Source of the DNA: a virus
Virus genome (UHGV): UHGV-0066004
Direction: 5' to 3' (one strand)
DNA: 64,000 nt
Shown here: piece after piece, positions 18,525 through 64,000 of the stretch
Layout: each line of letters begins with the position of its first letter
Position numbering within the stretch: the first letter of the stretch is position 1
Notes under the pieces: generated by a model
Seen by the model: the letters and a program-made list of their open reading frames with translations, nothing else
Databases searched by the model: none
Told to the model about the DNA's origin: nothing
Made by a program: the position numbers and the translations under genes

Positions 18525-18552
18525 AGCCTCCTTAATTGGGGGCTTTTTAATT
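18525..18552 (+). terminator. intrinsic terminator ending the plus-strand cluster
   Basis: AGCCTCC-ttaatt-GGGGGCT stem followed by TTTTTAATTTTT. Confidence 0.6.
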
Positions 18553-36346: not shown

Positions 36347-36391
36347 CTTTTAATCTCTCTCAAAATGGGGCTTTCAAGCCCCTATAAAGTT

Positions 36392-39313: not shown

Positions 39314-39372
39314 CTAGTTACCTCACCAATAAATATAAATGTTCTTTAAACCTTTTCTTCGAATTGTTTTAC

Positions 39373-39965: not shown

Positions 39966-40119
39966 TTTAACTTGCCTCTCAACTCACAATAAGAGAGTCC
40001 TAAAAAGAACCCTAGTAAGACAGAACCTATGAACAACCCAATAATACTCTCTGCCATATATAACATCCAATAAAAAAGGTGATGTAAGCCTATCAAGACC
40101 CACATCACCTTGTCAAGTT

Positions 40120-40686: not shown

Positions 40687-40693
40687 TTGTATA

Positions 40694-42886: not shown

Positions 42887-43093
42887 TTAAATCTTTTTAG
42901 AAAACTTCGAAAAGAGTTCTCTTAGTTTTTCAGTGATACCTAACTGTATCTCTAATATTTCAAAGATAACCCATAGTAACATAGCTCCAAACAATGAACC
43001 TTGTTCAAAGTCAGTAAATAGGTTAACAATAAGCATACCAATCACAATAGCTGGTGCATCAACAACCAAACCTTCCCAAAGGCGTTTAAGCAT
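42887..43093 (-). CDS. small membrane protein
   Basis: 68 aa, two hydrophobic helices. Confidence 0.4.
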   Translation of the reverse strand: MLKRLWEGLVVDAPAIVIGMLIVNLFTDFEQGSLFGAMLLWVIFEILEIQLGITEKLRELFSKFSKKI

Positions 43094-43328
43094 TATTCAC
43101 CTCTGCCATAAAATTCTGTAGCGTCCCAACAGGTTTTAGGTTTTGTCCATCAGTTTTCATGATGAATGGCATCTGACGAACTGGCATCTGTGCAATATCC
43201 ATCAGGTCTGATAGTTCATAGTCCTGCCCTAACATTCTCACAACATGGTCAATACCACGAGCTTTTGCAAAATTCTTTGCAGTCTCACACTGAGGGCATC
43301 CAGTTTTGGAGTAAATTACATAAGTCAT
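43086..43328 (-). CDS. glutaredoxin or NrdH-like redoxin
   Basis: 80 aa with CPQC active site near N-terminus, adjacent to nrdB. Confidence 0.7.
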   Translation of the reverse strand: MTYVIYSKTGCPQCETAKNFAKARGIDHVVRMLGQDYELSDLMDIAQMPVRQMPFIMKTDGQNLKPVGTLQNFMAEVNNA

Positions 43329-44401: not shown

Positions 44402-44655
44402 AGCGTGATTTCTCCTTTCTTTATCATTTCTAAGGCTTGTTTTCTGTCTAAAACTTCCCAATTTTCTTTGTTAAACATCTCATAAGGTCTTGCATAGATT
44501 TTACCATCTGCTGTAGAGATGTAAGAGATACCAGCAACCCATGAGTCATCATTTTGTTTTATCATCATGTCTGTGCTACTCACATAGTACATCGTTTTCC
44601 GAGGCTTGTGGAGCAAGTATATAGGCCGCTCATGTTTTTCTATTAAATCTTTCAT
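44398..44655 (-). CDS. hypothetical protein inserted between nrdA and nrdB
   Basis: ATGA overlap with nrdB start. Confidence 0.4.
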   Translation of the reverse strand: MKDLIEKHERPIYLLHKPRKTMYYVSSTDMMIKQNDDSWVAGISYISTADGKIYARPYEMFNKENWEVLDRKQALEMIKKGEITL

Positions 44656-44710
44656 GGTCTCTCCAAAGTTATTTTTAGAGGGTCTTTTACGACCCTCATA
44701 GTTGTTAAAA

Positions 44711-47326: not shown

Positions 47327-47651
47327 GGTATTTCTCCAAGTTTCTTTTTAGATACAACCAACCATAGTCAGTCCTTTCTACACCCATAAAGAGTGGAGCC
47401 ATCACAACTTTACCGAAAGTATTCCTGTGTTGGCAGATTTCAAAGGAATACTCTTTCTCAATATCAATCCCGTATTTGTACAGGACTGCTTTTAAAACTT
47501 GTTCATTGTCCAGAAGTGTATCTGGAGTCTCACCATATTTTTCTAGTAACGGGTCATTCATAAACACCGTCATAGAAATATTGTAGTTTGAGAAGTGGCT
47601 CTTCTGAGCCACACCCTCTTTATTAATGTTCTGTGAATCCATTATAACCAA
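47319..47651 (-). CDS. hypothetical protein
   Basis: ORF in track. Confidence 0.45.
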   Translation of the reverse strand: MVIMDSQNINKEGVAQKSHFSNYNISMTVFMNDPLLEKYGETPDTLLDNEQVLKAVLYKYGIDIEKEYSFEICQHRNTFGKVVMAPLFMGVERTDYGWLYLKRNLEKYRV

Positions 47652-48378
47652 CCCCTTTTAACCAGCACTTCAGGTTATTAGCATCATAATTCAGTTTCGG
47701 GTATGAGGTTACATGGAACTGCTCACCATCATAGTAGACAATATCTGCAATCCATAGTCCGTTCTCTTTACAGAAGTCTTTATCTGCTTTAGAGGTAATT
47801 GGATTAACTTCTACAAAACCATCTACACCCAAATCCTTTAAGCTACCTACAATACCTTTGCAGATAACGCATGTCTCAGATACTACCACAAAAAGTTCTT
47901 GGCTTTCAAGCTCTACAATGTATTCACCAAGCTGTACTTTAGGGAGATTTGATTGCTTCATAATCTTCCCATCGGCTGCACGAACAATCGCATACCACTC
48001 TTTACCATCAACTACTGACATTCTGATAATACACTCTTGACCAGTACGCTTTTCAATGTCTGCAAGACGTTTTAAAGCTTCTTCATAGTCATCTGTGTAC
48101 TTCAGGTCATTATTATGGCAAACAGCTTTCATAGCACCGTTATGGTCATGTTGTGACAGATAAATCAATCCGTCAAGAACATATTGCAAATCCGCCTGAG
48201 CATCCAGTGTCTCAATGGGGTCTTTCTCTTCAATTGCTTTTACAAGCTCTTTTGCTTCTTCAAGCATACACAGAGATTGAGATTTTAAAGATTCCCAATA
48301 CTCATCACTGTAAGGTTGCTTTTGAGTGTTTCCACAACGAAGGTTCCAGTTTTTTACTGATTCTCTTGAGTTAAACAT
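47623..48378 (-). CDS. hypothetical protein
   Basis: 251-aa ORF. Confidence 0.5.
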   Translation of the reverse strand: MFNSRESVKNWNLRCGNTQKQPYSDEYWESLKSQSLCMLEEAKELVKAIEEKDPIETLDAQADLQYVLDGLIYLSQHDHNGAMKAVCHNNDLKYTDDYEEALKRLADIEKRTGQECIIRMSVVDGKEWYAIVRAADGKIMKQSNLPKVQLGEYIVELESQELFVVVSETCVICKGIVGSLKDLGVDGFVEVNPITSKADKDFCKENGLWIADIVYYDGEQFHVTSYPKLNYDANNLKCWLKGVGYNGFTEH

Positions 48379-48623: not shown

Positions 48624-49121
48624 TCAAGCACAATTTGCTTTCATTACCTTATGGATTCTTTTTTCAGCATCTTCATAAGTTTCTTTAGTAATAAACTTAA
48701 TTGCTGCAATATTGGCATTGTAGAAGAGTCTGAGCTTCGAGTCAATCCTTTTTGTCATTACATCGAACTTATGTTGAAGGTTTGCTTCACCATAAACTAG
48801 ACCACCTTTTGTGTAGTAGGTTTGGATAATGTAAAAGTCAAAAAACTCTTTTCCAAAGCTTTCAATATCTTTTTTGATATACTCAGAAGAAGTCTCATAA
48901 GTCATCCAATCACTTTCCTTAGTGACTATCTTCTTCCGAGTCTTACCAGCAACTTTTCTTTTGGTCACACTGTTAAGCTGCTTCTTACCCAAATAGTACT
49001 GTCCAGTCTTTTTGCAGTACACTAGGTAGACAAAACCAAAGTGCTTTGCTGGGTCAACTTCACCACATAGTGAAACCCAATGTCCATATTCAGGGCAATT
49101 GCCAAAACCTTTAACCTTCAT
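48624..49121 (-). CDS. GIY-YIG homing endonuclease (Seg-like)
   Basis: FGFVYLVYCKKTGQYYLGKK matches GIY-(10)-YIG spacing. Confidence 0.55.
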   Translation of the reverse strand: MKVKGFGNCPEYGHWVSLCGEVDPAKHFGFVYLVYCKKTGQYYLGKKQLNSVTKRKVAGKTRKKIVTKESDWMTYETSSEYIKKDIESFGKEFFDFYIIQTYYTKGGLVYGEANLQHKFDVMTKRIDSKLRLFYNANIAAIKFITKETYEDAEKRIHKVMKANCA

Positions 49122-49618
49122 TCATAAGCTTCTCCGTGATTTGAAAACTCTTTATGTAGTTCTTCTCTTTTCTTTTTGACAACTGATTCAGCCTCAGTGA
49201 TAGAGTCAAATAAACCTAGATGGTAGCATACTTTATTATGCTTGACTTGTGCAGCCCATCTACCTCTTTGCTTGTGGTAATATACACCCTTCACACCAGA
49301 CTTATTATCTTTTCTTTTGACTGCATTGCAGTTGTTGTCTGACCTGCTACACTCTCTCAAATTGTCGAACCAGTTGTCGTGCCTGATACCATTCTTGTGG
49401 TCAACAAATTTTGGGAGGTAGCCTTTCATATACAAGAATGCCAGTCTGTGTGCTGCATATCTTTTTCCGAAGAGTTTTATATAGATATAACCACTATGGT
49501 GTTTAAGACCTGCTACTGAGCCAGCTTTGGCCTTACCTCTTCTACCAACTAACCAAGTAAAGACCCCTGTTTCGGGGTCATAGTGCAGGTATTCTTTAAG
49601 AGTTTGTTGAGTTAACAT
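49118..49618 (-). CDS. HNH/AP2-type homing endonuclease
   Basis: Paralog of 59233..59760 (shared LHYDPETGVFTWL, AHRLA, C-terminal AP2-like KGV...GRW motif). Confidence 0.7.
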   Translation of the reverse strand: MLTQQTLKEYLHYDPETGVFTWLVGRRGKAKAGSVAGLKHHSGYIYIKLFGKRYAAHRLAFLYMKGYLPKFVDHKNGIRHDNWFDNLRECSRSDNNCNAVKRKDNKSGVKGVYYHKQRGRWAAQVKHNKVCYHLGLFDSITEAESVVKKKREELHKEFSNHGEAYE

Positions 49619-50642
49619 TTGGTGTCCACCCATACTTATCAAAAGTGAAATCGTCTTTCTTGTTTCTTTCCTGATAAGCTAAGAAAAAGTGTTGCTGCAT
49701 TAACTCTAAAGGTGTTCTGGTAATTGTTTGACCATCCCATGATACATAAGTGTATGACTCTTTCTTAGCATAAAGTTCATAGATAGCATCAAGGCACTCT
49801 TTATAAGTATTTTTACCTTCAAGGGCTTTCATTACAGTAGCCTTACCAACACCCTTTAAACCAAAATAATTATCAGCATTGTCACCAGCCACAGCTTGAT
49901 AACAAAGGAATTTAAAACCTACACCAACTGTCTTCTTAGCTTTTGGTGTTGATTTTATTGGGCAATCCCAAATTTCACCTACGTTGTTGTCAGCAATGAA
50001 AATCAAAGGCGACTTTTCATAGGTCATATCAATGCAGTAAGTCCCTTCAGCTTGGCGAAGGTCTTTATCAATACTCATCAAGGCAGCCTTTTTACCCATC
50101 TTTTCAGCTTTAGCAATAACGATAGAATCGGCTTCAAATCCATCAAGAATTAGTTTGAACTCTGGTCTTGACAGAAGATACTCACGACAAGCAACTAAGT
50201 GTGTTGGTGTGACAGCATCTTTACGGTTCCCTTGATATTGGTGCTCAAGACCTTTAATGTCTTTATGTTTATGCACACCTTTCTCTGTTAAATAACCTAC
50301 CCAAGTTCTCTCTTTACCAACAATCTTAAGCCATTCCTGAAGCACCTGTTGAGTAGCCATGATAGCTTCTTTTTCACTCTTAGCTTCTTTCCAAGTCTGT
50401 CTTTCCCATTCATCTTCATCAAATGTCAGGCCAAGCTCTTCCACAAGGATTCTCTGGTCTGCTAACCATCTTGCAGCATCTTTCGCATTATCAAATAGCT
50501 CAGATTCTTCTGCTGTGAGTTTATTGATGTATTTATATTTTGCTTTCTCAACTACACAAGCACCTTTATAGGCAATACTGTCAGAGTCAATAAAAACATG
50601 TGTAACTGAATCGGGAAGTTTTGTTAATGTGTACTTCTCCAT
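49596..50642 (-). CDS. 5'-3' exonuclease / flap endonuclease (RNase H-like)
   Basis: Acidic clusters FIDSDSIAY and MSIDKDLRQ typical of FEN/PIN-fold metal sites. Confidence 0.55.
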   Translation of the reverse strand: MEKYTLTKLPDSVTHVFIDSDSIAYKGACVVEKAKYKYINKLTAEESELFDNAKDAARWLADQRILVEELGLTFDEDEWERQTWKEAKSEKEAIMATQQVLQEWLKIVGKERTWVGYLTEKGVHKHKDIKGLEHQYQGNRKDAVTPTHLVACREYLLSRPEFKLILDGFEADSIVIAKAEKMGKKAALMSIDKDLRQAEGTYCIDMTYEKSPLIFIADNNVGEIWDCPIKSTPKAKKTVGVGFKFLCYQAVAGDNADNYFGLKGVGKATVMKALEGKNTYKECLDAIYELYAKKESYTYVSWDGQTITRTPLELMQQHFFLAYQERNKKDDFTFDKYGWTPNVNSTNS

Positions 50643-50704: not shown

Positions 50705-51562
50705 TTAGTCTTCTGTATCGAAGTCTTCATCTTCTTCGTCATCTGGGTCTGGCAAATCTTCATCATCACCATCATCAGAAGCATTCGAAGATTTATGGTC
50801 TGTTGCGTCTTCTTCAGTGATTTCACCGTTATCTTCAACACCATCAAGACCAAGCATAGCCAGTTCATCTTCATCCAGTTCAGGTTCACCATTAGCACCG
50901 TTACCACCAGTGTAAGGTACAAGAGTATCAATGATAAACTGTTCCTGAATAGGTTTTGTCAGAACATTGTTCTCAAAAGTGTAGAAGTGAGTAGAAAGAA
51001 TCACACTACCAAAAGAACCATTACCAACTGCGATATCTGGATGAATTACATCATAGTTCTTGTCATCTTCATGTTTATCAGATGCTTGAGCTTTGATTTT
51101 CTTCATCGGCTGCTTAACAGCTACACGCTTACCATTTACTTCTTCAATCAGCATTACAGGGAATGACTGTTTAGCTGTCCATACAGCACCATCTTTATAA
51201 GCTGCTGCACGACTTACTTTCAAGATGTAGTAAGTGTCTGCTTCAAAAGGTGGCTTACAACCAAACTTCTCTTCGAAGTCGTCTGCATCAACTGCTTCAG
51301 TAGTGACTTTATCCCAGCCTTCTGGATTTTTCTTAGATTTAGTAAACTCTTTAAACAGTTTGTTACCGTCTTCTGCCAGAATTGATACGCTGTAGCTACA
51401 ATCTTTTCCTGGGAATTTCTTGTCAATAGATTTACCTTTACCCGGACGTGGTGAAGTGTTCAGGTAATAAAACCAGACATCTTTCAGCAGGTAACGCAGA
51501 GTTTGACGTTCAGTACCGTTGTACTTCTCTACCGGAGCTTTCATTTTAACAACTTTAGACAT
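50705..51562 (-). CDS. single-stranded DNA-binding protein (acidic C-terminal tail)
   Basis: 285 aa ending DDGDDEDLPDPDDEEDEDFDTED; sits in replication module. Confidence 0.5.
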   Translation of the reverse strand: MSKVVKMKAPVEKYNGTERQTLRYLLKDVWFYYLNTSPRPGKGKSIDKKFPGKDCSYSVSILAEDGNKLFKEFTKSKKNPEGWDKVTTEAVDADDFEEKFGCKPPFEADTYYILKVSRAAAYKDGAVWTAKQSFPVMLIEEVNGKRVAVKQPMKKIKAQASDKHEDDKNYDVIHPDIAVGNGSFGSVILSTHFYTFENNVLTKPIQEQFIIDTLVPYTGGNGANGEPELDEDELAMLGLDGVEDNGEITEEDATDHKSSNASDDGDDEDLPDPDDEEDEDFDTED

Positions 51563-51784: not shown

Positions 51785-52074
51785 GATATTCTCCGATATA
51801 CTTGATATTCAAACACATTTTCTTTCATTATAAACAGCCAACCAATATTATGCTGAGGCAGTGTAATGATGACTGTAATCATACTTTGATGGAACTGCTG
51901 TTCTATTTCAACTTCTCCATCGCATTTCATGTGGAGCATTCTATAGAACCTATCAATCTTTGTCAAACACTCTTCATGAAATTTATTTAAACTTTTTTCT
52001 TCAAATAAGGGTGTGAACCCCTCTCTTTTATAGCTATCACTCAGTTTCGAACGGGCAGTCATCTGCATCCTCAC
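51781..52074 (-). CDS. hypothetical protein
   Basis: ORF in track. Confidence 0.45.
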   Translation of the reverse strand: MRMQMTARSKLSDSYKREGFTPLFEEKSLNKFHEECLTKIDRFYRMLHMKCDGEVEIEQQFHQSMITVIITLPQHNIGWLFIMKENVFEYQVYRRIS

Positions 52075-54022
52075 TTAATACAGGTGGAATCGTTGAGCTT
52101 TGACGCTGCTCTTCAGTATAGACTTCACCAGTCTCACGGTCAAACACTTCATCCTCATAATGTGGCAAAGAGTCATCGTAATGGTCTTCAGCTTCACCAA
52201 TACCAAACTGTTGGCGAATATTTTCTGCTGCACCATCAATGTCAACTCCACAACCAGAGGCTTTAATGAGACGTCCTGTATCTGGATTGTACCAAGTATG
52301 ACCAGCAATACCTGTTGACTTACCGTGACGACGGCATTTAGTTAACTTGATTTTTGTCAAGTTTTTCTTAACAGGGTCTGGGTCAACCTTGTTACGCATT
52401 AACAGAATGTTGTTCATAGAAATCTGGAAATACGCACCAGAACCTTTAATATCCTCTTCAGAGATATCTCCACCTTCGGAGTTAGCCTTCTGACCACCTG
52501 CACTCTTACGAACGTGACAGACGTTCACCTGTGCATACTGGTAGCGTTTGCAACGACGCAATAGCTCAGATAAAACTTCCTCTTCATCCGTATCTGAACG
52601 TGACAGAGCCAACGTAATAGGGTCAAGAATAATAATCTTACAGTCTAAGCTGTTAACAAGACAGTCAACAAACTCCAGCAAGTTATCTTGGTCAATTGCC
52701 CCTTGATGGTCAACGATGTGGATACGACGACCTTTAGACAGTTCTGCGTGTGCCTTCTTCAATTCATCCCAATCACGTTCGTCATAAGGAATCTCAGAAA
52801 TCTGCTTGCTCAGGTGGATTGCACAGAGCATCTCCATCAACTCTTCATAGGTATCTTCTACAGGAATTACACCAATATTGTAATCGGTATCTTTCCAAGC
52901 AGTATAAATCATTTCACGAGTGTATGCAGATTTACCCACTGAAGAGGGTGCTGCCAGAGTTGTAATCTCACCTAAACCATAACCGCCATAAGTCAGTCTG
53001 TTCAAATCTCCGAATGATTCTGGGAAAGGAATCAATGGAATCTGACCACGATTCTTCATTGCCTCAAAACCATCTGCGAAGTTCTTGATACCAGCAGGGC
53101 AGTAACGGGGTGCATTGTATATACGCTGCTTAAACCCTTCAAGAACTGTATCTTTCTCTTTATAGAACTTTGTCCACCATTCGTTAAGGTCTTTTACACC
53201 CTCTGGATACTGGAATAAACGAACCTTCTCGATAGGGAGAATGCCAGCAGCCTCTTTGGTAGCTTTAGCACCTGCTTCATCGTTATCAAAGCACAAGTAA
53301 ATCTCATCAAATGATGTGATGTACTGATAGTTGTCTTTGATAGACTTAATGTTTGCACCTGATGGAACAGATACGTGACAGTAATTCTTACGACGAGACT
53401 TATCTTTAATCGCCAAAGAAGTCATGTAGATAGCTGTCGCACATTCCATCTCACCTTCCCAGATGAACAGTCGGTTCCCACCTTCTGGAGCAATCCATGA
53501 ACCGAACATTGCCAGTTCACCTTTGATATCTCCAACACCACCTGAAAAGTCTTTTAACTTACCACGTAGGTGTTCTTTTGGATGGTCTTCTGGGTAACGG
53601 TGACGAACACGGTAGCCAACATGTTCTAGCTTGCCATCTTCATTACGTTTGTAAGTTGGATAGAAATGTGCATCAATTTCACCATCACTATCAATGTCAA
53701 CCTTGATACCTAAACGTTCAAGGACTTTTGCAGGGATTTTCCTGTCTTTCAAGTCCATTGCTTCAAGGTTTTCTTTCACATCGTCTAAATCCATTCCACG
53801 GAAAGTACGGTTTTTATTGTCTGAACCAGTAGAATAAGTGCTCACGATTTGTCCTTTATCAAAATCCCACTCTGGGAAACCTTTGTTACAGCTAAAGCAA
53901 GTCATCGAATAAGAATCATCGTCATGATGATAGATTGAACCAGCATCTGATGAACCACAACGTGGACATGCACAATGACCAATAAACTGACCAGCCTCTT
54001 TCAATTTACGACCTTTAGACAT
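52037..54022 (-). CDS. bifunctional primase-helicase (T7 gp4-like)
   Basis: N-terminal Cys4 zinc finger (CPRCG...CFSC), central TOPRIM-like region, C-terminal DnaB-type Walker A (APSSVGKS). Confidence 0.8.
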   Translation of the reverse strand: MSKGRKLKEAGQFIGHCACPRCGSSDAGSIYHHDDDSYSMTCFSCNKGFPEWDFDKGQIVSTYSTGSDNKNRTFRGMDLDDVKENLEAMDLKDRKIPAKVLERLGIKVDIDSDGEIDAHFYPTYKRNEDGKLEHVGYRVRHRYPEDHPKEHLRGKLKDFSGGVGDIKGELAMFGSWIAPEGGNRLFIWEGEMECATAIYMTSLAIKDKSRRKNYCHVSVPSGANIKSIKDNYQYITSFDEIYLCFDNDEAGAKATKEAAGILPIEKVRLFQYPEGVKDLNEWWTKFYKEKDTVLEGFKQRIYNAPRYCPAGIKNFADGFEAMKNRGQIPLIPFPESFGDLNRLTYGGYGLGEITTLAAPSSVGKSAYTREMIYTAWKDTDYNIGVIPVEDTYEELMEMLCAIHLSKQISEIPYDERDWDELKKAHAELSKGRRIHIVDHQGAIDQDNLLEFVDCLVNSLDCKIIILDPITLALSRSDTDEEEVLSELLRRCKRYQYAQVNVCHVRKSAGGQKANSEGGDISEEDIKGSGAYFQISMNNILLMRNKVDPDPVKKNLTKIKLTKCRRHGKSTGIAGHTWYNPDTGRLIKASGCGVDIDGAAENIRQQFGIGEAEDHYDDSLPHYEDEVFDRETGEVYTEEQRQSSTIPPVLSEDADDCPFETE

Positions 54023-54215
54023 TAGCACCTCTTCGTTGTAGTTCTGCTTTTAATCCATTTTCAATCTTGTCCAGCTCATGAATTTCATCTGCAATCTCTT
54101 TCCTTCGTGATTCAACTCTCTTAAGACGTTCAATCATTACCTCATTGGAAAGAGATGAGAGTTCCACTAAACGGTGGTCAATAACTTTAAAATTGTCTTT
54201 TACTCTCATCTTCAT
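54015..54215 (-). CDS. hypothetical protein
   Basis: 66-aa ORF. Confidence 0.4.
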   Translation of the reverse strand: MKMRVKDNFKVIDHRLVELSSLSNEVMIERLKRVESRRKEIADEIHELDKIENGLKAELQRRGANV

Positions 54216-54223: not shown

Positions 54224-54967
54224 TTAAACTTTAATGATGGCTCTTAGCTTGTTCTCAAGGTCTGCAAGAGTACCATTATTATGAATAATGTCACGCTCAT
54301 ATTTTGTAGAAATGCCATTTTCTGAAACATGTGATGAAACTTTGTCCACATTGTCTCTTTTTACTTCAATAGTTTGGTGTGCAAATCTACTCAGCCATTC
54401 AGCTTCAGAGTCAAATCTTAAATCACTGATTAAGACAAAACCATATTGATTTCTAAGTGAGCACATTTCATGGAATCTAACCATTCTTTTTTCAAGGTCT
54501 TTAGACCAGAACTTGTCGCCCATTACTTTACGGACAACTTCAGTACCCCAAATCTGTTGAATTTGTCTTGATGAGAATTTATACTTTTTACTAAATCCCA
54601 GACGTGTTAATAGGGTAGGTTTAGCAACCTTCTTAAGCTCCATGATTAATCGTCCGGTTAACTCTGACATAAGCTTGAAGTCCATATGGTAACGTTCATC
54701 TCTGAAGGTGAACTCCATAGCTTCCGTAACTTTAAACATCAGTTCAGGATATGATAAGTCAAATACCTGTGGAGTCTCTTTAGTTTCACCATACAGGTCA
54801 TTCCAAGTCAGGTCAAATATCTTTGATGCAGACAGTTTAAGGTTGTCTGCAAAGGCCATTACAGCAACATTGTAGCCATACTCATCCTCTAAGATGTTCT
54901 TCACAATAGAACATGAGGTGTCTTTTCCAGAACGTGCCTTTCCAGTAAATGCGATAATATTACTCAT
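54224..54967 (-). CDS. deoxynucleoside monophosphate kinase
   Basis: N-terminus IIAFTGKARSGKDT closely parallels the T4 gp1 P-loop. Confidence 0.75.
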   Translation of the reverse strand: MSNIIAFTGKARSGKDTSCSIVKNILEDEYGYNVAVMAFADNLKLSASKIFDLTWNDLYGETKETPQVFDLSYPELMFKVTEAMEFTFRDERYHMDFKLMSELTGRLIMELKKVAKPTLLTRLGFSKKYKFSSRQIQQIWGTEVVRKVMGDKFWSKDLEKRMVRFHEMCSLRNQYGFVLISDLRFDSEAEWLSRFAHQTIEVKRDNVDKVSSHVSENGISTKYERDIIHNNGTLADLENKLRAIIKV

Positions 54968-56265: not shown

Positions 56266-56441
56266 GTAAGCCTCTTTTAAGTAACTATTAAGTTTTAATC
56301 TTTTATCTTAACGTATTCTATACGTTATACTTTAAAGCTTTTTAAAAGCTATTAAATAATCTTTTAAGAGCTTTAAAGTATCTGTATAGTTAAACTGTTA
56401 AGTAACCTTTTAAGTAAAAACCCACTTCGCAAAGATTAACA

Positions 56442-56477: not shown

Positions 56478-56522
56478 TTTTTGCAGTAATGTATGAGGTT
56501 AATGATTTTAGAGGGAGTAAAA

Positions 56523-59222
56523 ATGGAAAACGTAGATTTTAAAAACTTACATTTAGTTGGTGATACAGAAACTGATGGTTTACTCCTTGAGTTCACTAAA
56601 GTTCACGTAATGGCCTTTGCAGACTATAAATCTGACGATGAAGAGCCACCTGTATGGGTCTTTACAGATGAGCCTATCCTCGGTCACAAGTACACTAAGT
56701 ACATTAAGGGTGGTTTACGTGAAGGTATTGAGTTTGCGTTGAAGGCAAAACGACTTTGTATCCATAATGGTCTCGGTTATGACTGGTGGGTTTTCAATCA
56801 CATTGCACCGGATTTATGGAACTTTGATAATCCAAAATGTAAGCCGTGGAGTAATTTCTTTCAGGACTCTCTTATCCAGTCTCGTGTTCAGTGGATGGAT
56901 AGACCAACTCCAAAGGGTTATAAAGGTGCTCATGGTTTGGCTGCATGGGGTGCTCGTGTTGGTGTTCGTAAACCAGAGATTGAACATTGGGGTGTGTGGA
57001 ATGCAGAAATCTTCACTCGTGTTGTAGAAGATATCCGTATTAACGCCAAAACTAAACGGGCGCTTGATAACGAGTATCTCAAGCTTAAGAAGTGTGGTAT
57101 AGACACTTATGAAACTTACATGCGAGCTAAAGAGACATCTTTCTGGATGAGCCAACAAGCTATTAATGGCTGGAAAGCTGATAAAGAGCTTATGGAGTTC
57201 CATGTAAAGGAGCTTGACAAGTTGACTAATGAGCTTGCTTCAGAGGTTGAACCACATCTACCTCCAACTATTAAGACCAAAGGTAAAGTCACTGGAGAGG
57301 AGTTTGCAAAAGCTTGGAATGAGTATGTTGAAACATTTGGTCATGCAGATGGACTGAAGAGAATTACCAAGTACCCTAAGACAAAGTATCGTCAGCAGGT
57401 ACGTAATGGCGAGATGCAGACATACGAAATCAAACCATTTGGTAAGCCAACTACAAAGATTTTTAACATTGAGAAAAGGAATTGCTATACACCAACCAAC
57501 ACTGTAACTGGTGAAGAGTACAAGGAAGGCTTTGTAGCAATGAAGGATGCTCGTGCAATTTGCAATGAGTTGAACGCAAAGATTGGTAAGAAATGCAAAG
57601 ACTGGAAGCCAGTAAAAACAGTCAAAACTGTGAAGTACTATAACAGCCACGTTGTTAACCACTTTGAACTTGAGTCAAGTCGCTACACAGGTTTGATTGA
57701 TGCACCATATACACCAATTGAGTTCGAGGTTTCTCGTATGACTCAGGTAGCAGTTGTTAAAGACTACTTGAAATCAGTTGGTTGGATTCCAGATGACTGG
57801 AACTACAAGAAAGACTCAGATGGTCGTCCTGTCAAAGTTTGTCGTTTCAAAGACAATAAAAAGATGATTACAAAACATCCTAAGTGGCAGGAAATGGTTG
57901 AGCGGTGTGGTTTGAGTTATGTTGAACATGAAGGTGTCCAGTACATTGAGCATAACTGGTCTGTGAAGAAATACACAGATTTGCTTGAGCCTTGCTTAAT
58001 CCGTACTTCACCAAAACTTACCGAATCATCCTATGATACGATTGAAGGTGAGCTTGGACAGAAGATTGCGAAATACTACACTTTGATGCACAGACGCAGA
58101 ACTATTGAGAACTCAAAGGATGATGAAAAAGGTTGGTTGAACCAGATTCGTCCTGATGGTCGCCTTAGTGCTGGTGCAATGGTGTTTGGTACTTCAACTG
58201 GACGTATGACGCAATATGGTATTGTAAACGTACCGTCTGGTGCTGCTGTCTATGGGGAACCAATGAGGGCAGTGTGGATTTGTGAGGAAGGTACTAACGT
58301 TGTCTCTGTAGACATGAACTCAGCCCAGCTAGTTCTCCTTTGTAACTTTATGGGTGATAAAGATTTCACCAAAGCGGTAACGCAAGGTAAAGAAGAAATT
58401 GAGTTTACTCGTCAAGAAGATGGACGCTATTACTGCAAACATTTTGATGAGTACCTCAACCCAGAGATTGATAAGTACCTTCGCTATGACTCTGAGAATG
58501 ACCTGTACGTTGTCTATTCAGGGACTGATGCGCATACACTGAACAGTATCTACTTTAGCTTGAACGATGAGCAGGACATCTTGACTTGTCGAGCTACTCA
58601 GGATGAGAATCTTCTCCATGAGATTAGCAAGGGTCGTAAGAAAGCTAAGAATGGTATCTATGCACTGCTGTTCGGTGCAGGTGATGAGAAGTTTGCTAAG
58701 ACGATTAAAGCTGCAACTACTCAGGAAGGAGCACTGACTAAACAGACTTACTTTATTCGTTTGCCTAAAATTAAGAAGCTGCTAGATGACTTGGAAGCTG
58801 ACTACAAAGCAACTAAAAAGGCACTTGAAGAGGTGTTTGGTAAGACTGCTGCAATCTCTAAAGGGGGTTTTGTAAAGGTTGCTGGAGCTTGGTTGTGGTG
58901 TAAATCTCCACATAAGTTATTGAATTATTTGCTCATGGGTTCGGAAAGTCAGATTCAGAACGAGGCAATTAACCTTGCTTGCCGTCGTATGATTGACGAA
59001 GGTTTGATGAAGTTGAACGGTCGCAAACCAGCTATAGGTGCTCGTTTATTGTGCTCCTATCACGACGAGACAAGTTGGGAATGCCCAGAGAGTATGACGG
59101 CAGAGGTGAAGGCTGTCACTGATTGGTATTACGGGCAAGCCTCTAAGAACTTAGGGCTAAAGAGTGAAACACTGGTAACTGGTACTGGTAAGGTTGGTAA
59201 ATCGTGGTTGGAAGTGCATTAA
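56523..59222 (+). CDS. DNA polymerase, family A (T7 gp5-like)
   Basis: Exo motif DTETDG, HNGLGYDW, and segments paralleling T7 gp5 (AHGLAAWG, APYTPIEF, KSVGWIPD); start set to ATG after GAGGGAG. Confidence 0.85.
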   Translation: MENVDFKNLHLVGDTETDGLLLEFTKVHVMAFADYKSDDEEPPVWVFTDEPILGHKYTKYIKGGLREGIEFALKAKRLCIHNGLGYDWWVFNHIAPDLWNFDNPKCKPWSNFFQDSLIQSRVQWMDRPTPKGYKGAHGLAAWGARVGVRKPEIEHWGVWNAEIFTRVVEDIRINAKTKRALDNEYLKLKKCGIDTYETYMRAKETSFWMSQQAINGWKADKELMEFHVKELDKLTNELASEVEPHLPPTIKTKGKVTGEEFAKAWNEYVETFGHADGLKRITKYPKTKYRQQVRNGEMQTYEIKPFGKPTTKIFNIEKRNCYTPTNTVTGEEYKEGFVAMKDARAICNELNAKIGKKCKDWKPVKTVKTVKYYNSHVVNHFELESSRYTGLIDAPYTPIEFEVSRMTQVAVVKDYLKSVGWIPDDWNYKKDSDGRPVKVCRFKDNKKMITKHPKWQEMVERCGLSYVEHEGVQYIEHNWSVKKYTDLLEPCLIRTSPKLTESSYDTIEGELGQKIAKYYTLMHRRRTIENSKDDEKGWLNQIRPDGRLSAGAMVFGTSTGRMTQYGIVNVPSGAAVYGEPMRAVWICEEGTNVVSVDMNSAQLVLLCNFMGDKDFTKAVTQGKEEIEFTRQEDGRYYCKHFDEYLNPEIDKYLRYDSENDLYVVYSGTDAHTLNSIYFSLNDEQDILTCRATQDENLLHEISKGRKKAKNGIYALLFGAGDEKFAKTIKAATTQEGALTKQTYFIRLPKIKKLLDDLEADYKATKKALEEVFGKTAAISKGGFVKVAGAWLWCKSPHKLLNYLLMGSESQIQNEAINLACRRMIDEGLMKLNGRKPAIGARLLCSYHDETSWECPESMTAEVKAVTDWYYGQASKNLGLKSETLVTGTGKVGKSWLEVH

Positions 59223-59232
59223 TGGTGACAAA

Positions 59233-59760
59233 ATGATTACACAAGAACGTTTAAAGGAACTACTACACTATGACCCCGAAACAGGGGTCTTTACTTGGCT
59301 TCGTAGAGAGGGTGACTCAAGGGCTGTTAAAGTCTTTAATAGTAAGTACGCAGGACAGGTAGCGGGGAGCATCCAGATTGACTCAACTGGTCATAAGCAG
59401 ATTACTATCTATTTTGACAAGAAAGCACATAAAGCACACAGACTTGCATGGCTGTACGTGTATGGTAGGCTACCGAAAGGTGTTATTGACCATATTAATG
59501 GGGACTCCCTTGATAACAGGGTTGTAAACTTAAGAGAAGCAGATGACTGCCAAAGTGCTTGGAATAAAAGCAAGTTATCTACCAATAAATCAGGCTATAA
59601 GGGTGTAAGCCTGAAGAAGAAGTCTGGTAGGTGGGTTGCGCAAATAAGCTATAAAGGTAAAAAGATATCATTAGGTTACTATGACACACCAGAAGAAGCC
59701 CATAAAGCTTACTGTGAAGCTGCTATTAAACTCCACGGAGAGTTTGCAAAACTAAGTTGA
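59233..59760 (+). CDS. HNH/AP2-type homing endonuclease
   Basis: Paralog of 49118..49618; 33-bp identical nucleotide stretch in inverted orientation. Confidence 0.7.
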   Translation: MITQERLKELLHYDPETGVFTWLRREGDSRAVKVFNSKYAGQVAGSIQIDSTGHKQITIYFDKKAHKAHRLAWLYVYGRLPKGVIDHINGDSLDNRVVNLREADDCQSAWNKSKLSTNKSGYKGVSLKKKSGRWVAQISYKGKKISLGYYDTPEEAHKAYCEAAIKLHGEFAKLS

Positions 59761-59785
59761 CAAGGTGCTCAGGGAAGAGTACCAT
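59757..59785 (+). promoter_or_regulatory. candidate promoter TTGACA-N17-TACCAT
   Basis: Same architecture as 10699-10727. Confidence 0.35.
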
Positions 59786-59805
59786 ATACAATATCTTATA
59801 TAGGA

Positions 59806-60021
59806 GTGATTATGAGCCACCGTGGAAGAACCCATGCAGCGATGATGAAAGGTGCTTCAAAGGAAACTATCAAGAACCGTAAGCAGAAGTTGTTTGAGAG
59901 AATGAACAGGTTAATTGACAATTCATCTCTTTCAGGTTCTGAGAAGGTTTTCTTGAAAGGTAATCTGAAAAGCATTGCACAAGAACTTATTGATATTGAG
60001 TATTGGAGACATCAAAAATGA
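59806..60021 (+). CDS. hypothetical protein
   Basis: ORF in track. Confidence 0.45.
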   Translation: MIMSHRGRTHAAMMKGASKETIKNRKQKLFERMNRLIDNSSLSGSEKVFLKGNLKSIAQELIDIEYWRHQK

Positions 60022-60236
60022 CACTTGCAGACGTTATTCAGCAACTTCACGACAATTGCTATACTCCAGAGTTGATTCAGGAGATGTCCATTGTAGTGAT
60101 GCCTAGTAAGTTCGTAAAAGCTTTTAATGGTGACTCTTTAAGGGCTGCACATATCCTTATTGTTGACGGCAAGATTGCAAGAGACTGTACTGGAGTACTC
60201 AAAGGCGAACGTATTGATATTCTGGAGTTGCTATGA
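60003..60236 (+). CDS. hypothetical protein
   Basis: ORF in track. Confidence 0.45.
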   Translation: METSKMTLADVIQQLHDNCYTPELIQEMSIVVMPSKFVKAFNGDSLRAAHILIVDGKIARDCTGVLKGERIDILELL

Positions 60237-60368
60237 AGAAAATGTACAGTCTCTGGGGAAGGGTTGGTAAAGGTTTTGACTGGACACTTCTTCGTTCAAA
60301 CGTTAAACGTAGTGAATTACCAGAACTCATCACTCACTATTTAAAAACATACAGAGAGGTAGACTATC

Positions 60369-60626
60369 GTGAACAATAAGGTTAAGAGTTGTGTGAAAGC
60401 AATGGTTGCACTTGGAGTAATTTTTCTGGCTGGCTGCAACCCATCTTATGAAAACAAAGATGCTTCTTACAGCCTCCCTCCAGAGATGCAAGACTGCAAA
60501 ATCTACAAACTCAATGGTGATGCTATAAGCAGAGATATTGTTGTTGTCAGATGCCCAAACTCTCAAACAACAACATCTTATAGCTATGGCAAAAATGGTC
60601 AATCACATACTACGGTTATTGAGTGA
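60369..60626 (+). CDS. putative lipoprotein (GTG start)
   Basis: Signal peptide with lipobox LAGC; GAGAGGT SD upstream of GTG. Confidence 0.5.
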   Translation: MNNKVKSCVKAMVALGVIFLAGCNPSYENKDASYSLPPEMQDCKIYKLNGDAISRDIVVVRCPNSQTTTSYSYGKNGQSHTTVIE

Positions 60627-60636
60627 GGTTTTCACG

Positions 60637-60843
60637 ATGGAAGTATTAGTAAACTATATCTATCGTTATGATGTTGTTCACTCCACTACAACGGTAGCTC
60701 AACGTAATCCAATCGTCCCACGAGAAGGTGAGTTGGTTCGCATTGAGGATTGGACTTACACTGTGGAAAGCATCATTCATAAGTTTGATGTTGCTGGTGA
60801 TGTTCAAGTTATTGACGTAGAAATTGGTGGCAAGAGGAAATGA
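60637..60843 (+). CDS. hypothetical protein
   Basis: Start set to ATG after upstream stop (MEVLVNY). Confidence 0.4.
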   Translation: MEVLVNYIYRYDVVHSTTTVAQRNPIVPREGELVRIEDWTYTVESIIHKFDVAGDVQVIDVEIGGKRK

Positions 60844-61031
60844 ACAAAGAAGATAAGCATAAAAATGCTGTACGAACTCCTGATGGAAAGATTCAGTCCT
60901 TCGTCCTGACAGTTGGTGGAAAGCCATTTCGTTGCCACTGCGGAGCAAACTGTTTTCATAAACCGGATAAAAATGACTTAGAGCTTTACGCATGTAATGC
61001 TTGCAACACTTGGTATCACTCAGAGGAATAA
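60840..61031 (+). CDS. small zinc-finger protein
   Basis: 63 aa with CHCG...CNACN Cys/His cluster. Confidence 0.45.
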   Translation: MNKEDKHKNAVRTPDGKIQSFVLTVGGKPFRCHCGANCFHKPDKNDLELYACNACNTWYHSEE

Positions 61032-61032
61032 A

Positions 61033-62136
61033 ATGACAATCCTATACAAACAAAATAAAGATGGCTCTTTCAACGTCTGGTCATGCGTTGCTGTAGGTGA
61101 CAAAGTTATTACAACCTATGGTAAAGAAAATGGCAAGATGATGTTTGAAGAGTATACAGCAGAACCTAAAAACATCGGTAAAAAGAATGAGCGTAACGCT
61201 GAACAGCAAGCTCTCTTTGAAGTTGCTGCTAAGTATAAAAAGCAAGTTGACCGTAAAGGTTATGCTTACACAAAAGAGTCTGCACAGAATACTGAGAAGG
61301 TAGGTGTACAGCTTGCTCATGATGCTGCAAAGGTTAGTCATGCGAAGTACCTGAAGTTCCCTGCTGATGCTCAACCAAAACTTGATGGTGTCCGTTGTAG
61401 AATTTCAAGACACTTGAGCATCGGTAGTGTATTTACAGCATACTCTCGTGAGAATACTGTTTATAAAATTCCTACTGAGCTAATACCTGACATTATGGCA
61501 ATGTTAAGGCTCCACAAAGATGTTGATGAATTTGATGGTGAGATTTATGCTCATGGGCAGGACTTAGAAGATATTGTCTCCATGATTAAAAATGAAGACA
61601 ATCCTGACCGACATCTACTCAAGTTTTACTGGTACGATATCTGTGACAGTACTAAGACGTGGCCTGAGCGTAGAGATATTATTGAGACTTCACCATTGAA
61701 TGACTTTAGAGACGGCTGTAAAGTTGTTCCTGTTAAATCTCGTCGTGTAAATTCTTGGGAAGAGTTTGATGAAGCTCATGATAAGTGGGTTGAAGCTAAG
61801 TTTGAAGGTGCAATGTACCGTTCAATCTCTGAAGACTCCTTCTATGAGTGTTGTCACCGTTCATACTTCTTGATTAAACACAAGAAGATGCACACTGAAG
61901 AGTTTAAAGTGACTGGTGTCAAGACCGATAAACGTGGTCATGGTAAGTTCGTTGTAGAGACTCTTCCTAACGTCTTTGTAGATGTCTCATGGAAAACTAC
62001 ACACGAGAAGAAACAGTATCTTGCTGAACACCCTGAAGAGTTTATCGGGAAACCTTTAACGGTTCAGTTCCAGAAGATGACTCGTAAGGGTTCTTTACAG
62101 TTCCCTGTTGGTCTCGTTATTAGGGATTATGAATAA
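61033..62136 (+). CDS. ATP-dependent DNA ligase
   Basis: Adenylation motif I KLDGVRC; start set to ATG after GAGGAA SD. Confidence 0.8.
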   Translation: MTILYKQNKDGSFNVWSCVAVGDKVITTYGKENGKMMFEEYTAEPKNIGKKNERNAEQQALFEVAAKYKKQVDRKGYAYTKESAQNTEKVGVQLAHDAAKVSHAKYLKFPADAQPKLDGVRCRISRHLSIGSVFTAYSRENTVYKIPTELIPDIMAMLRLHKDVDEFDGEIYAHGQDLEDIVSMIKNEDNPDRHLLKFYWYDICDSTKTWPERRDIIETSPLNDFRDGCKVVPVKSRRVNSWEEFDEAHDKWVEAKFEGAMYRSISEDSFYECCHRSYFLIKHKKMHTEEFKVTGVKTDKRGHGKFVVETLPNVFVDVSWKTTHEKKQYLAEHPEEFIGKPLTVQFQKMTRKGSLQFPVGLVIRDYE

Positions 62137-62139
62137 ACT

Positions 62140-62286
62140 ATGTTCAGTACAGTCATTCTGTTTATACTGGTTGTCTTTGTATTGTCATACGTTGCAAGTA
62201 AGCTTTTGGACACATCTTTTGCAATGGGTGTCTTGTTTACAATCTTTTGTTTCGTGACACATATAGCTATCAGAACTTTTTTATAA
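62140..62286 (+). CDS. 48-aa hydrophobic membrane protein (below track cutoff)
   Basis: MFSTVILFILVVFVLSYVASKLLDTSFAMGVLFTIFCFVTHIAIRTFL, 4 nt after ligase stop. Confidence 0.35.
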   Translation: MFSTVILFILVVFVLSYVASKLLDTSFAMGVLFTIFCFVTHIAIRTFL

Positions 62287-62351
62287 AAAGTTGTTGACAT
62301 AGAAAATTTGGTGAGTATACTGAGCAGCATAAACCAACAGGTACTCACCAG

Positions 62352-62450
62352 CATCACTTAAGAGTCTTTTAAAAGGGTTTTTAAGTGAAGTATGGTATGG
62401 CATGGCGCGGTGAGGTCGGGTGCGGTCAGGTCAGGTGAGGTTCGGTGTGG
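62352..62450. repeat. direct repeat copy 1 (at least 99 bp, identical to 63902-64000), contains a GGTNN array
   Basis: catcacttaagagtcttttaaaagggtttttaagtgaagtatggtatggcatggcgcggtgaggtcgggtgcggtcaggtcaggtgaggttcggtgtgg occurs twice. Confidence 0.9.
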
Positions 62451-62531
62451 GTAGTTAGTCTCAACTACATTAAAATGAGACTTACCTTTTTAAAAGGTCT
62501 TTAAAAGGTCTTTAAACAGGGTCTTTTAATG

Positions 62532-62610
62532 AGGTGTGGTAAGGTAAGGTTAGGCGAGGTTGGGTGCGGCAAGATTTGGTCAGGTTTGGTATGGTGAGGG
62601 TGGATGGTAG
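62532..62610. repeat. GGTNN pentanucleotide array (about 14 units) plus GGTAG...CTACC hairpin
   Basis: GGTAA GGTAA GGTTA GGCGA GGTTG GGTGC ... GGTGA. Confidence 0.75.
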
Positions 62611-62689
62611 TAGCCACGTTAAAAATCTACCAAGTTTCTAAAGAGTCTTCTGTTGAGGGTTCTTTACAAACAACTTAACAATCAACTAA

Positions 62690-63295
<606 letters not shown>

Positions 63296-63297
63296 TT

Positions 63298-63738
63298 ATG
63301 AATACAAAAGCATTAGCAGCAAAGTTCAGTTACGGTGACACTGTATCACATTCTGAGATGGACACCTTCTTAGGTATTGTGAAGCCAACTTATCAAGGTG
63401 ACATTGTTAAGTACGAAGATGAAATGAAGGCTTACGCACTGACACGTTTAAATCGACTTGAGAAGTTTATTGAGAAGCTTCTTAAAGAAGAGAAGATTTA
63501 TCTGGTTGCTTCAATGGGTGTTGGTTATCGTGTGGTTGAACCTAAGCATCAAGCAACTATTGCAAAACGAAAAATGTCTGGTAAAATTGGTCGTGCTTTA
63601 AAGCAAGCCACTCAAGCGATTGAGAATGTGAACACTATGGCACTTAGCCATCAAGAACGCTCACGACTAATTGAACAGCAAAACCATTTAGCTGCTATGA
63701 AAGCTAACATTAACAAGCAACGTAGAAAACCTTTCTAA
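63298..63738 (+). CDS. hypothetical protein
   Basis: 146-aa ORF, 2 nt after previous stop. Confidence 0.5.
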   Translation: MNTKALAAKFSYGDTVSHSEMDTFLGIVKPTYQGDIVKYEDEMKAYALTRLNRLEKFIEKLLKEEKIYLVASMGVGYRVVEPKHQATIAKRKMSGKIGRALKQATQAIENVNTMALSHQERSRLIEQQNHLAAMKANINKQRRKPF

Positions 63739-63748
63739 GTTAACTAGG

Positions 63749-63773
63749 TAGCCTCTTCGGAGGCTCCTTTTTA
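63749..63773 (+). terminator. intrinsic terminator with UUCG tetraloop
   Basis: AGCCTC-TTCG-GAGGCT followed by CCTTTTT. Confidence 0.7.
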
Positions 63774-63810
63774 AAAGGTCTTTAAGAGGGTCTTTTAACA
63801 AGGTGCTGCG

Positions 63811-63872
63811 AGGTGGGGTCGGGTCAGGTACGGTCTTGTAAGGTCAGGTTAGGTAAAGTGAGGTATGGGTAG
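63811..63872. repeat. GGTNN pentanucleotide array (about 11 units)
   Basis: GGTGG GGTCG GGTCA GGTAC GGTCT ... GGTAT GGGTAG then GTAG...CTAC hairpin. Confidence 0.75.
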
Positions 63873-63901
63873 TTAATCGGAGCTACATAAAAATTCGATT
63901 A

Positions 63902-64000
63902 CATCACTTAAGAGTCTTTTAAAAGGGTTTTTAAGTGAAGTATGGTATGGCATGGCGCGGTGAGGTCGGGTGCGGTCAGGTCAGGTGAGGTTCGGTGTGG
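63902..64000. repeat. direct repeat copy 2 (identical to 62352-62450), truncated by window end
   Basis: Exact match over all 99 bp available. Confidence 0.9.

Follow-up and report, generated by a model that had tools for sequence, protein, structure and literature searches.

Felixounavirus gene content, a candidate gp2.5-type single-stranded DNA-binding protein and a VIPR locus in the phage genome UHGV-0066004

Does a phage that carries a T7-like replisome beside T4-like genes for nucleotide metabolism represent a new combination of genes or an established one? The question is raised by a stretch of 64,000 nucleotides (nt) from the virus genome UHGV-0066004, here called the window, which makes up about three quarters of a phage genome and to whose positions all coordinates refer. 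A sequence-only reading had listed, under the interval 56523–62136, a family A DNA polymerase, a gp4-like primase-helicase, an acidic-tail single-stranded DNA-binding protein (SSB), a FEN-type exonuclease and an ATP ligase together with NrdAB, NrdDG, a glutaredoxin, a deoxynucleoside monophosphate (dNMP) kinase, rIIA/rIIB-like genes and a large tRNA cluster. Comparison with known phages leaves very little doubt that the window is an ordinary member of the genus Felixounavirus, and that this mix of genes is the usual core of that genus and not a recent chimera.

The interval itself is occupied by the following plus-strand genes, in which lengths are given in amino acids (aa) and small genes as open reading frames (ORFs):

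56493–59222, plus strand: family A DNA polymerase, 909 aa (Pfam DNA_pol_A, E 1.5e-14)
59194–59760, plus strand: homing endonuclease with HNH_3 and AP2 domains, 188 aa (Pfam HNH_3 1.2e-14, AP2 1.6e-14), directly 3' of the polymerase gene
59806–61031, plus strand: about six small conserved ORFs of 48–101 aa with no assigned function (from the ORF list)
60997–62136, plus strand: ATP-dependent DNA ligase, 379 aa (Pfam DNA_ligase_A_M 2.4e-7, OB_2 1e-5)

The polymerase may start at 56493, 56502 or 56523, the last being an ATG inside the ORF. Its closest solved structures are the T7 gp5 entries in the PDB (E 1e-10), and it shares 92% aa identity with gp96 of Felix O1. The PDB relatives of the ligase are 6imj and the Chlorella virus ligase. 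The small ORFs are likewise annotated in phage Bas63 and in Felix O1 (ORF89–94). Of the approximately 15 genes that had been placed in this interval, it covers two, the polymerase and the ligase. All of the listed genes are present in the window, the others lying outside 56523–62136 on the minus strand. They are judged to be real genes and not chance ORFs because of their strong family matches and their conservation in hundreds of phage genomes.

Genus membership and the origin of the gene mix

Four overlapping segments of the window were compared by megablast with 50,697 phage records. Each segment matched 263–324 records, nearly all of them Felixounavirus phages of Escherichia, Salmonella, Shigella and Citrobacter, and overall similarity to the genus was 92–97% identity over 93–100% of the segments. 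The segment 56000–62500 was matched end to end by Bas63 (JohannRWettstein, MZ501086), at 94.3% identity over 100% of its length. Phage humlepung was the best match for 30000–54000 (96.6% over 97%) and DaR-2019b for 39001–64000 (95.2% over 97%), while the best matches for 1–25000 reached 92–94% over 93–95%. These phages and Mushroom, all Felixounaviruses of E. coli or Salmonella, are 92–97% identical to the window. By blastn, 58,734 of the 64,000 bases (92% of the window) were covered by the Felix O1 reference (NC_005282); the alignment is 94.3% identical and forms a single colinear series, which passes through the arbitrary start point of the reference at rIIA.

The genus line of the International Committee on Taxonomy of Viruses is drawn at 70% or more nucleotide identity over the genome. 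The window is assigned to Felixounavirus because its identity exceeds 90% over more than 93% of the 64 kb, far above that line. The genus, which belongs to the Ounavirinae within the Andersonviridae and holds about 100 named species, consists of virulent myoviruses of E. coli, Salmonella and Shigella, with Felix O1 as the type phage. In the window, terminase, portal-side and tail-related genes are recognized by homology, and the host is deduced from the relatives.

The order and content of the genes are also shared with Felix O1 (Whichard et al. 2010). The shared set comprises rIIA/B, NadV, phosphoribosyl pyrophosphate (PRPP) synthetase, NrdDG, NrdAB, glutaredoxin and MazG, as well as the exonuclease, primase-helicase, dNMP kinase, polymerase, HNH endonuclease, ligase, tRNA cluster and terminase. 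As early as 2010, the authors of the Felix O1 genome sequence reported a polymerase and a primase-helicase like those of T7 and SP6, accompanied by rIIA/B, NrdAB/DG, a dNMP kinase, genes for NAD salvage and some 22 tRNAs (PMC3185647). In that paper, the polymerase of Felix O1 was found to be most like those of the podoviruses PaP3, SP6, K1E, K1-5 and T7, and its primase/helicase most like those of T7-like phages (PMC3185647). The gene combination has been known since 2010 and is a hallmark of the genus.

The statement that this set is characteristic of neither T7 nor T4 is correct: the polymerase and primase-helicase are nearest to gp5 and gp4, and NrdD, the dNMP kinase and the rII genes have T4 counterparts. 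The novelty that it implied does not survive, given 92–97% identity to 260–320 Felixounavirus records and colinearity with Felix O1. Genome comparison found what the sequence-only reading had itself named as evidence against it, a near-identical member of a well-described genus.

The same split of homologies, with the polymerase and primase-helicase pointing to T7 and NrdD, the dNMP kinase and rII pointing to T4, is what might suggest a recent chimera in which a T7-like replication module was newly recombined into a T4-like or other myovirus. This explanation is extremely improbable. The arrangement is the same, gene for gene, in Felix O1 and in hundreds of relatives, and such colinearity refutes a recent junction. 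The GC content is also uniform, ranging from 0.35 to 0.43 with a mean of about 0.39, and the composition does not shift from the 'T7-like' to the 'T4-like' parts. The proteins resemble those of T7 and T4 only distantly (polymerase, E 1e-10; dNMP kinase, E 7e-4), so that any exchange would be ancient. In addition, the annotated ORFs of the window include no T4-type family B polymerase, clamp or gp32, and its annotated large ORFs include no T7-type single-subunit RNA polymerase. The T7 and T4 homologies are judged, from protein comparison, to be real but ancient.

Some observations weigh against a simple assignment to the known genus. No database genome is more than about 97% identical over any 24-kb segment, the best relative varies from segment to segment, and about 5.3 kb of the window is without a counterpart in Felix O1. 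The phage is not a copy of a sequenced isolate and may lie near the 95% species line. The lack of an identical database genome, with best identities of 92–97% that vary along the window, could also be read as the mark of a separate, new genus within the Ounavirinae whose likeness to Felixounavirus is confined to gene content; with identity so far over the 70% line across nearly the whole 64 kb, this has hardly any claim to belief. The segments absent from Felix O1 that were checked, namely 62422–64000, the homing endonuclease downstream of nrdD, and the polymerase 3' end with its HNH allele, were found in other members of the genus. An assembly artefact joining contigs of different phages is equally implausible, as a single colinear alignment to a finished reference runs across the window without compositional breaks and nothing was found in its favour. 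Membership of Felixounavirus, with the core gene set of that genus, is the reading retained, and as a statement on gene content it matters little, since it describes the known repertoire of a well-studied genus that is used for Salmonella typing and biocontrol.

Replication, nucleotide metabolism and host-related genes

The remaining replication genes lie on the minus strand:

52037–54028, minus strand: T7 gp4-type primase-helicase, 663 aa (Pfam Toprim and DnaB_C; Cys4 zinc motif; acidic C-terminus)
50705–51562, minus strand: candidate gp2.5-type SSB, 285 aa, with the acidic tail ...DDEEDEDFDTED (moderately supported by a fold match)
49596–50642, minus strand: 5'-3' exonuclease of the T7 gene 6/FEN type (phrog_107 exonuclease, 1.9e-65)

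T7 gp4 is the best solved-structure relative of the primase-helicase, matching its residues 151–594 with an E-value of 2.2e-39, and the protein ends in the acidic sequence ...CPFETE. Residues 246–292 of the exonuclease weakly match Pfam 5_3_exonuc and the Taq 5' nuclease, and its counterpart in Felix O1 is annotated as gene '6' exodeoxyribonuclease.

The 285-aa protein is annotated as 'hypothetical' in Felix O1 (ORF104), Bas63 and DaR-2019b, and its PHROG family has no function attached. Sequence searches of the PDB, Pfam and PHROGs returned nothing informative; only the fold search helped. An alignment of 12 sequences was built, and an AlphaFold2 model was compared by Foldseek with the PDB and with the BFVD viral library. 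The model has a mean pLDDT of 62, with means of mostly 60–86 for 10-residue blocks across the first 220 or so residues and a disordered tail. Of its nine leading PDB matches, the first was the DUF2815 protein 4klk (E 9e-5), and there were also matches to five chains of the Enc34 SSB (E 2e-3 to 8e-3) and two chains of T7 gp2.5 (1je5; E 4e-3 and 1e-2). The first eight matches have probabilities of 0.93–1.00, yet TM-scores of just 0.26–0.49; the ninth was the Bacillus cereus phage-related protein 4jg2 (E 5e-2). Matches in BFVD carried the names 'ssDNA-binding' or 'DNA helix destabilizing'. Phe F281 in the acidic tail is invariant in the 12-sequence alignment. Both gp2.5 and gp4 of T7 have acidic tails ending in Phe, which the ends of the 285-aa protein and of the primase-helicase echo. 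The 285-aa protein is probably the gp2.5-type SSB that is otherwise missing from the T7-style replisome of Felixounavirus; against this identification stands its dependence on a medium-confidence model with TM-scores of 0.3–0.5.

From these genes we infer that the phage DNA would be copied by a compact T7-style replisome consisting of the family A polymerase, the gp4-type primase-helicase as a single polypeptide and the ATP ligase, to which the probable gp2.5-type SSB and the gene 6-type 5'-3' exonuclease would be added. Compared with the T7 replisome (gp5, gp4, gp2.5, gp6 and gp1.3), the window shares a family A polymerase, a single-chain primase-helicase with zinc-finger, Toprim and DnaB-type parts, a probable acidic-tail SSB of the gp2.5 fold, a 5'-3' exonuclease and an ATP ligase. 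The sequence relationship is remote, however, and the window polymerase is 200 aa longer than T7 gp5. Unlike T7, the phage would be a myovirus, its genome is twice as large, and it carries tRNAs and Nrd genes. The replisome is T7-like, but the phage is not a T7-like phage (Autographiviridae), because a phage RNA polymerase is lacking among the annotated large ORFs, though the gp5- and gp4-type genes are present. Similarly, Felix O1 encodes no RNA polymerase (PMC3185647).

Genes for nucleotide metabolism and NAD salvage, the rII genes and the tRNA cluster complete the set:

44711–46945, minus strand: NrdA (Pfam Ribonuc_red_lgC, 7e-91)
43328–44461, minus strand: NrdB (Pfam Ribonuc_red_sm, 2e-34)
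43086–43328, minus strand: glutaredoxin (Pfam Glutaredoxin, 4e-7)
40694–42838, minus strand: NrdD (Pfam NRDD, 1.7e-114)
38828–39313, minus strand: NrdG (phrog_626, 5.7e-67)
54224–54967, minus strand: dNMP kinase of the T4 gp1 family (Pfam DNMK PF21448, 4.9e-21)
47623–48378, minus strand: MazG-like pyrophosphatase
34565–36346, minus strand: nicotinamide phosphoribosyltransferase for NAD salvage (Pfam NAPRTase, 7e-35)
36392–37288, minus strand: ribose-phosphate pyrophosphokinase, or PRPP synthetase (Pfam Pribosyltran, 7.5e-12)
31623–33989, minus strand: rIIA (phrog_612 RIIA, 6.8e-189)
30434–31543, minus strand: rIIB (phrog_609 RIIB, 3e-88)
3343–8489, minus strand: cluster of 26 tRNA genes amid small ORFs (26 by ARAGORN; 24 by Rfam at the gathering score)

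One small ORF lies between NrdA and NrdB within the block 43086–46945 (minus strand), and two lie within the NrdD–NrdG block 38828–42838 (minus strand). NrdD is closely related to T4 NrdD (1H78, E 6e-75), and the sole PDB match of the dNMP kinase is T4 gp1 (1DEK), at the E-value of 7e-4 given above. The NAD salvage pair (34565–37288), which like the MazG-like pyrophosphatase and the homing endonucleases had been absent from the earlier gene list, is annotated identically in Felix O1 and Bas63.

With ribonucleotide reductases of both the aerobic and the anaerobic type, together with glutaredoxin, dNMP kinase and the MazG-like pyrophosphatase, the phage would have a T4-style supply of deoxynucleoside triphosphate precursors whether or not oxygen is present, and td and frd would be located past the end of the window, going by the Felix O1 map. 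NrdA/B, NrdD/G, glutaredoxin, the gp1-type dNMP kinase and rIIA/rIIB are all shared with T4. Unlike T4, the phage has a genome of half the size, a family A polymerase, and a primase and helicase that are fused as in T7 gp4. It is thus no T4-like phage (Straboviridae), a group marked by the family B polymerase gp43 with clamp, clamp loader, gp41/gp61 and gp32. The NAD salvage genes, rIIA/rIIB and the large tRNA set may aid infection and counter host defences; in Bas63, defence-countering roles have been given to the NAD salvage and rII genes (bioRxiv 10.1101/2024.10.10.617714).

The published tRNA cluster of Felixounavirus contains approximately 17–22 genes, and the 26 of the window are slightly above this range. 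Relative to the 22 tRNAs of Felix O1, the surplus consists of Ser-gct, Ser-tga, Arg-tct and a second Met-cat. HNH endonuclease genes sit within the Felix O1 tRNA cluster, and none is found at those places in the cluster of the window. A search of the whole window with Rfam at the gathering threshold returned tRNAs only. Adjoining the cluster at 8655–10070 (minus strand) is a 471-aa 'RNA-binding protein' (phrog_850), called 'vWFA protein' in some annotations, which may correspond to gp130 of Bas63. According to the PhageMaP preprint, Bas63 gp130 is Ro60-like and counters the ppl defence system (bioRxiv 10.1101/2024.10.10.617714).

Homing endonucleases and phased repeats

The window has at least three homing endonucleases that clearly match a known family, together with two weaker candidates. 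In addition to the one that follows the polymerase, these are:

40120–40737, minus strand: NUMOD3 homing endonuclease (phrog_655, 7.7e-58), directly after an intact nrdD
49118–49642: endonuclease with HNH_3 and AP2 domains
37556–38071 and 48624–49121: possible endonuclease genes

Felix O1 differs from the window in having no NUMOD3 endonuclease after nrdD, leaving the segment 40127–40694 unmatched. The Bas63 annotation joins nrdD from two pieces that are separated by an endonuclease gene (11731–14617 of one retrieved Bas63 locus), in contrast to the intact nrdD of the window. The 165-aa ORF at 48624–49121 (minus strand) is called 'NAD synthetase' in the Felix O1 RefSeq record and in phrog_447. 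Because the ORF has a further match to a homing-endonuclease PHROG (3.9e-15) and a GIY-YIG-like motif at its N-terminus, the enzyme name looks doubtful.

The polymerases of Felix O1 and the window differ at two positions in the first 600 or so residues, whereas the last 300 or so are roughly three-quarters identical, forming a mosaic at 58290–59760. The HNH endonuclease of Felix O1 at the corresponding place is 47% identical to the allele of the window (59194–59760). The divergence of the polymerase 3' end and the HNH allele fit co-conversion, or gene conversion, around the homing endonuclease. In some relatives the polymerase is annotated in two pieces. These differences from Felix O1 look like ordinary homing-endonuclease traffic.

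A region of 1.6 kb at 18514–20107 has no ORF of 40 aa or more and the lowest GC content of the window (0.35). It lies between terminator-like hairpins, GGGGCTTTTT at about 18540 and AAAAAAGCCCC at about 20148, and corresponds to the gene-free gap 12305–13928 of Felix O1. The region is dense in short motifs phased at 11 nt (CTTAACAG/CTAACAAG, CTTTATAG and CTTTTAAG), and the inverse of the CTTAACAG/CTAACAAG motifs, TTGTTAAGAAA, is repeated 4.7 times at 19669–19720. The repeat list of the 2010 Felix O1 paper does not include this region (PMC3185647). It may serve as an origin, contain a packaging site or termini, or act as an array of protein-binding sites.

Similar repeats, phased at 11–12 nt and resembling TTTAAAAG or CTTAACA, recur between genes at 10531–10680, 17345–17389, 56334–56383, 62485–62526 and 62662–62687; among these intergenic regions is the divergent one that immediately precedes the polymerase gene. 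Such repeats may be sites for a phage regulator. The mechanism of transcription timing in Felix O1 has been stated to be unknown (PMC3185647).

The VIPR locus and its predicted targets

Directly after the ligase, and outside the interval 56523–62136, lies a plus-strand locus at 62294–64000 that was first spotted by its 5-nt GGT periodicity. Its two genes, the Cas7-like vipr and vap, are accompanied by four predicted guide RNAs (vrRNAs) of the form (GGYNN)n:

62294–62321, plus strand: near-consensus sigma-70 promoter, upstream of the arrays
about 62352–62476, plus strand: vrRNA unit 1 (vr1), repeat tract 62394–62450
about 62477–62625, plus strand: vrRNA unit 2 (vr2), repeat tract 62533–62599
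62693–63295, plus strand: vipr, 200 aa, Cas7-like fold, 96.9% identical to SUSP1 Vipr
63298–63738, plus strand: vap, 99.3% identical to its counterpart downstream of vipr in SUSP1
about 63766–63894, plus strand: vrRNA unit 3 (vr3), repeat tract 63802–63868
about 63895 to beyond 64000, plus strand: vrRNA unit 4, repeat tract 63944–64000, an exact copy of the first that is cut by the end of the window

Tandem-repeat and pattern scans showed that each array consists of 12–14 units of GGT plus two variable bases. The pattern of five consecutive GGTNN units gave 37 overlapping matches, against 0.04 expected, all at this locus and nowhere else in the window. Rfam applied to 62100–64000 at an E-value threshold returned noise only, and a literature search for GGTNN-like strings returned nothing relevant.

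An exact scan of IMG/VR revealed (GGTNN)n arrays in many unrelated viral contigs, mostly outside ORFs. Among 48 loci with clearly diverse spacers, 36 had a homologue of the 200-aa ORF of the window beside the array. In the reverse test, loci were collected by the protein alone, and 77 of 80 had (GGYNN)n arrays on the same strand; these 80 loci held 235 arrays on the gene strand and four on the other, with none in shuffled sequence. GC-rich phages use GGC in place of the GGT of Felix-type phages. A strict GGT definition, which found arrays at just five of 67 non-Felix Vipr loci, was misleading; relaxing it to GG at a 5-nt period revealed the use of GGC.

The Vipr protein of the window has no Pfam match. 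Its AlphaFold2 model (pLDDT 94, pTM 0.87) was compared with the PDB by Foldseek, and all 50 listed matches were chains from CRISPR effector complexes, namely type III-A (Csm), type VII and, in one case, type III-B (Cmr), with E-values down to 1.5e-5. Csm3 (5yjd) is the one stand-alone entry among these listed matches, and because of it Vipr is considered to be related to the Cas7-family backbone subunits. By its predicted fold, its C-terminal loop and its identity to the SUSP1 protein, Vipr has the features of a minimal RAMP, namely a Cas7-related protein with an RRM core, G-loop and thumb.

The VIPR system, described in June 2026, consists of the RAMP protein Vipr, the Vap protein and vrRNAs of 9–16 YNNGG repeats (bioRxiv 10.64898/2026.04.26.720920). 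The NN dinucleotides read double-stranded DNA, with one base skipped per unit, and the system was characterized in phage SUSP1, another member of the Ounavirinae (bioRxiv 10.64898/2026.04.26.720920). Expression of the vrRNAs, a ribonucleoprotein with Vipr and repression of targets were established experimentally for SUSP1 and P. fulva (same preprint). Several readings of the arrays were set aside: an RNA site for a TRAP-like ring protein, recognition sites for a gp4-type primase or a transcription-primed origin, two-tetrad G-quadruplexes, standby ribosome sites and a phage promoter element. These were dropped because the arrays are tied to a Cas7-like protein and match the VIPR description. 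Judged by its sequence, the locus is a complete VIPR locus.

The locus resembles the type II VIPR of SUSP1 in its site after the ligase, in its nearly identical vrRNA leaders and 3' tails, and in its 12–14 GGY/NN units per tract. Unlike in SUSP1, the NN dinucleotides specify a different set of guides. The arrangement of tracts also differs. In the window, two tracts were detected upstream of vipr and at least two downstream, the first being duplicated exactly downstream; in the SUSP1 locus, the same script detected one upstream and one downstream, and the preprint reports one upstream and three downstream vrRNAs (bioRxiv 10.64898/2026.04.26.720920).

Vipr at 90% identity or more occurs in 118 phage records. 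DaR-2019b, like the window, has the VIPR cassette. Felix O1 does not, and no exact run of five GGTNN units is found anywhere in its genome. Bas63 lacks vipr and vap and has kept one orphan (GGTNN)n array at the empty site. This orphan vrRNA-like tract lies at 8064–8126 of another retrieved Bas63 locus, between the small ORF downstream of the ligase and the next gene. The cassette, being absent from Felix O1, reduced to an orphan array in Bas63 and complete in the window, is polymorphic for presence within the genus.

Targets of the guides were predicted by the published rule of a 1-nt skip. The 10-unit exact pattern of guide 1, and of its exact copy guide 4, matched three species-representative genomes, including Geminicoccus and a metagenome-assembled genome of Armatimonadota. 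All of the matches are in frame and code for the conserved recombinase peptide IA[ED]RA[HQ][HQ][ED]SV. In Pantoea dispersa the match falls within a serine recombinase gene and, when extended, covers 23 of 24 positions. Homologous recombinase genes are present in 70 of 5,426 complete E. coli genomes. In the four that were retrieved (M19, GPEC1035, 00-3076 and MSB1_9I), the recombinase gene adjoins wrbA and occupies one end of a satellite-like element of approximately 11 kb, in which phage baseplate and tape-measure genes are also found. The main VIPR target of SUSP1 has been named as such a satellite (bioRxiv 10.64898/2026.04.26.720920).

In all four E. coli elements, guide 1 matches the same serine recombinase site at 22–23 of 24 positions, with the skipped base falling on the codon wobble position; the predicted target is ATCATCATAGCTGAGCGAGCACACCAAGAATCTCT. 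For guide 2, the predicted site is the start of the satellite's tape-measure gene, where 19 of 20 core positions match (22 of 28 for the whole guide). With other skip lengths, scores did not exceed 17 of 24 for guide 1 and 19 of 28 for guide 2, and none of 300 permutations of the unit order reached the observed guide scores. Guide 3 (vr3) gave background scores in the four retrieved satellites and had no target in any collection scanned. Exact 10-unit patterns of vr1, vr2 and vr3 were not found in IMG/VR, nor were two vr3 patterns in the JGI metagenomes. Under any skip rule, no guide had a target in the window or in the other retrieved loci of approximately 1.8 Mb, which include the whole Felix O1 genome.

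On balance, it appears somewhat likely that Felixounaviruses are polymorphic for a VIPR cassette and that this phage carries guides of its own, of which the duplicated one, present on both sides of the cassette, would be directed against the integrase (serine recombinase) gene of a wrbA satellite, the second against the start of its tape-measure gene and the third against a target outside the searched collections.

Two by-products of the analysis go beyond the gene content. One is a structural argument that a conserved 285-aa 'hypothetical protein' may be the missing gp2.5-type SSB of the Felixounavirus replisome. The other is the VIPR locus after the ligase, which belongs to a class of phage RNA-guided DNA recognition first reported in 2026 and has predicted targets in an E. 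coli satellite. If the reading of its guides is true, ordinary Felix O1-type phages would constitute a large library of natural VIPR guides, with which the conflict between phages and their satellites could be mapped.

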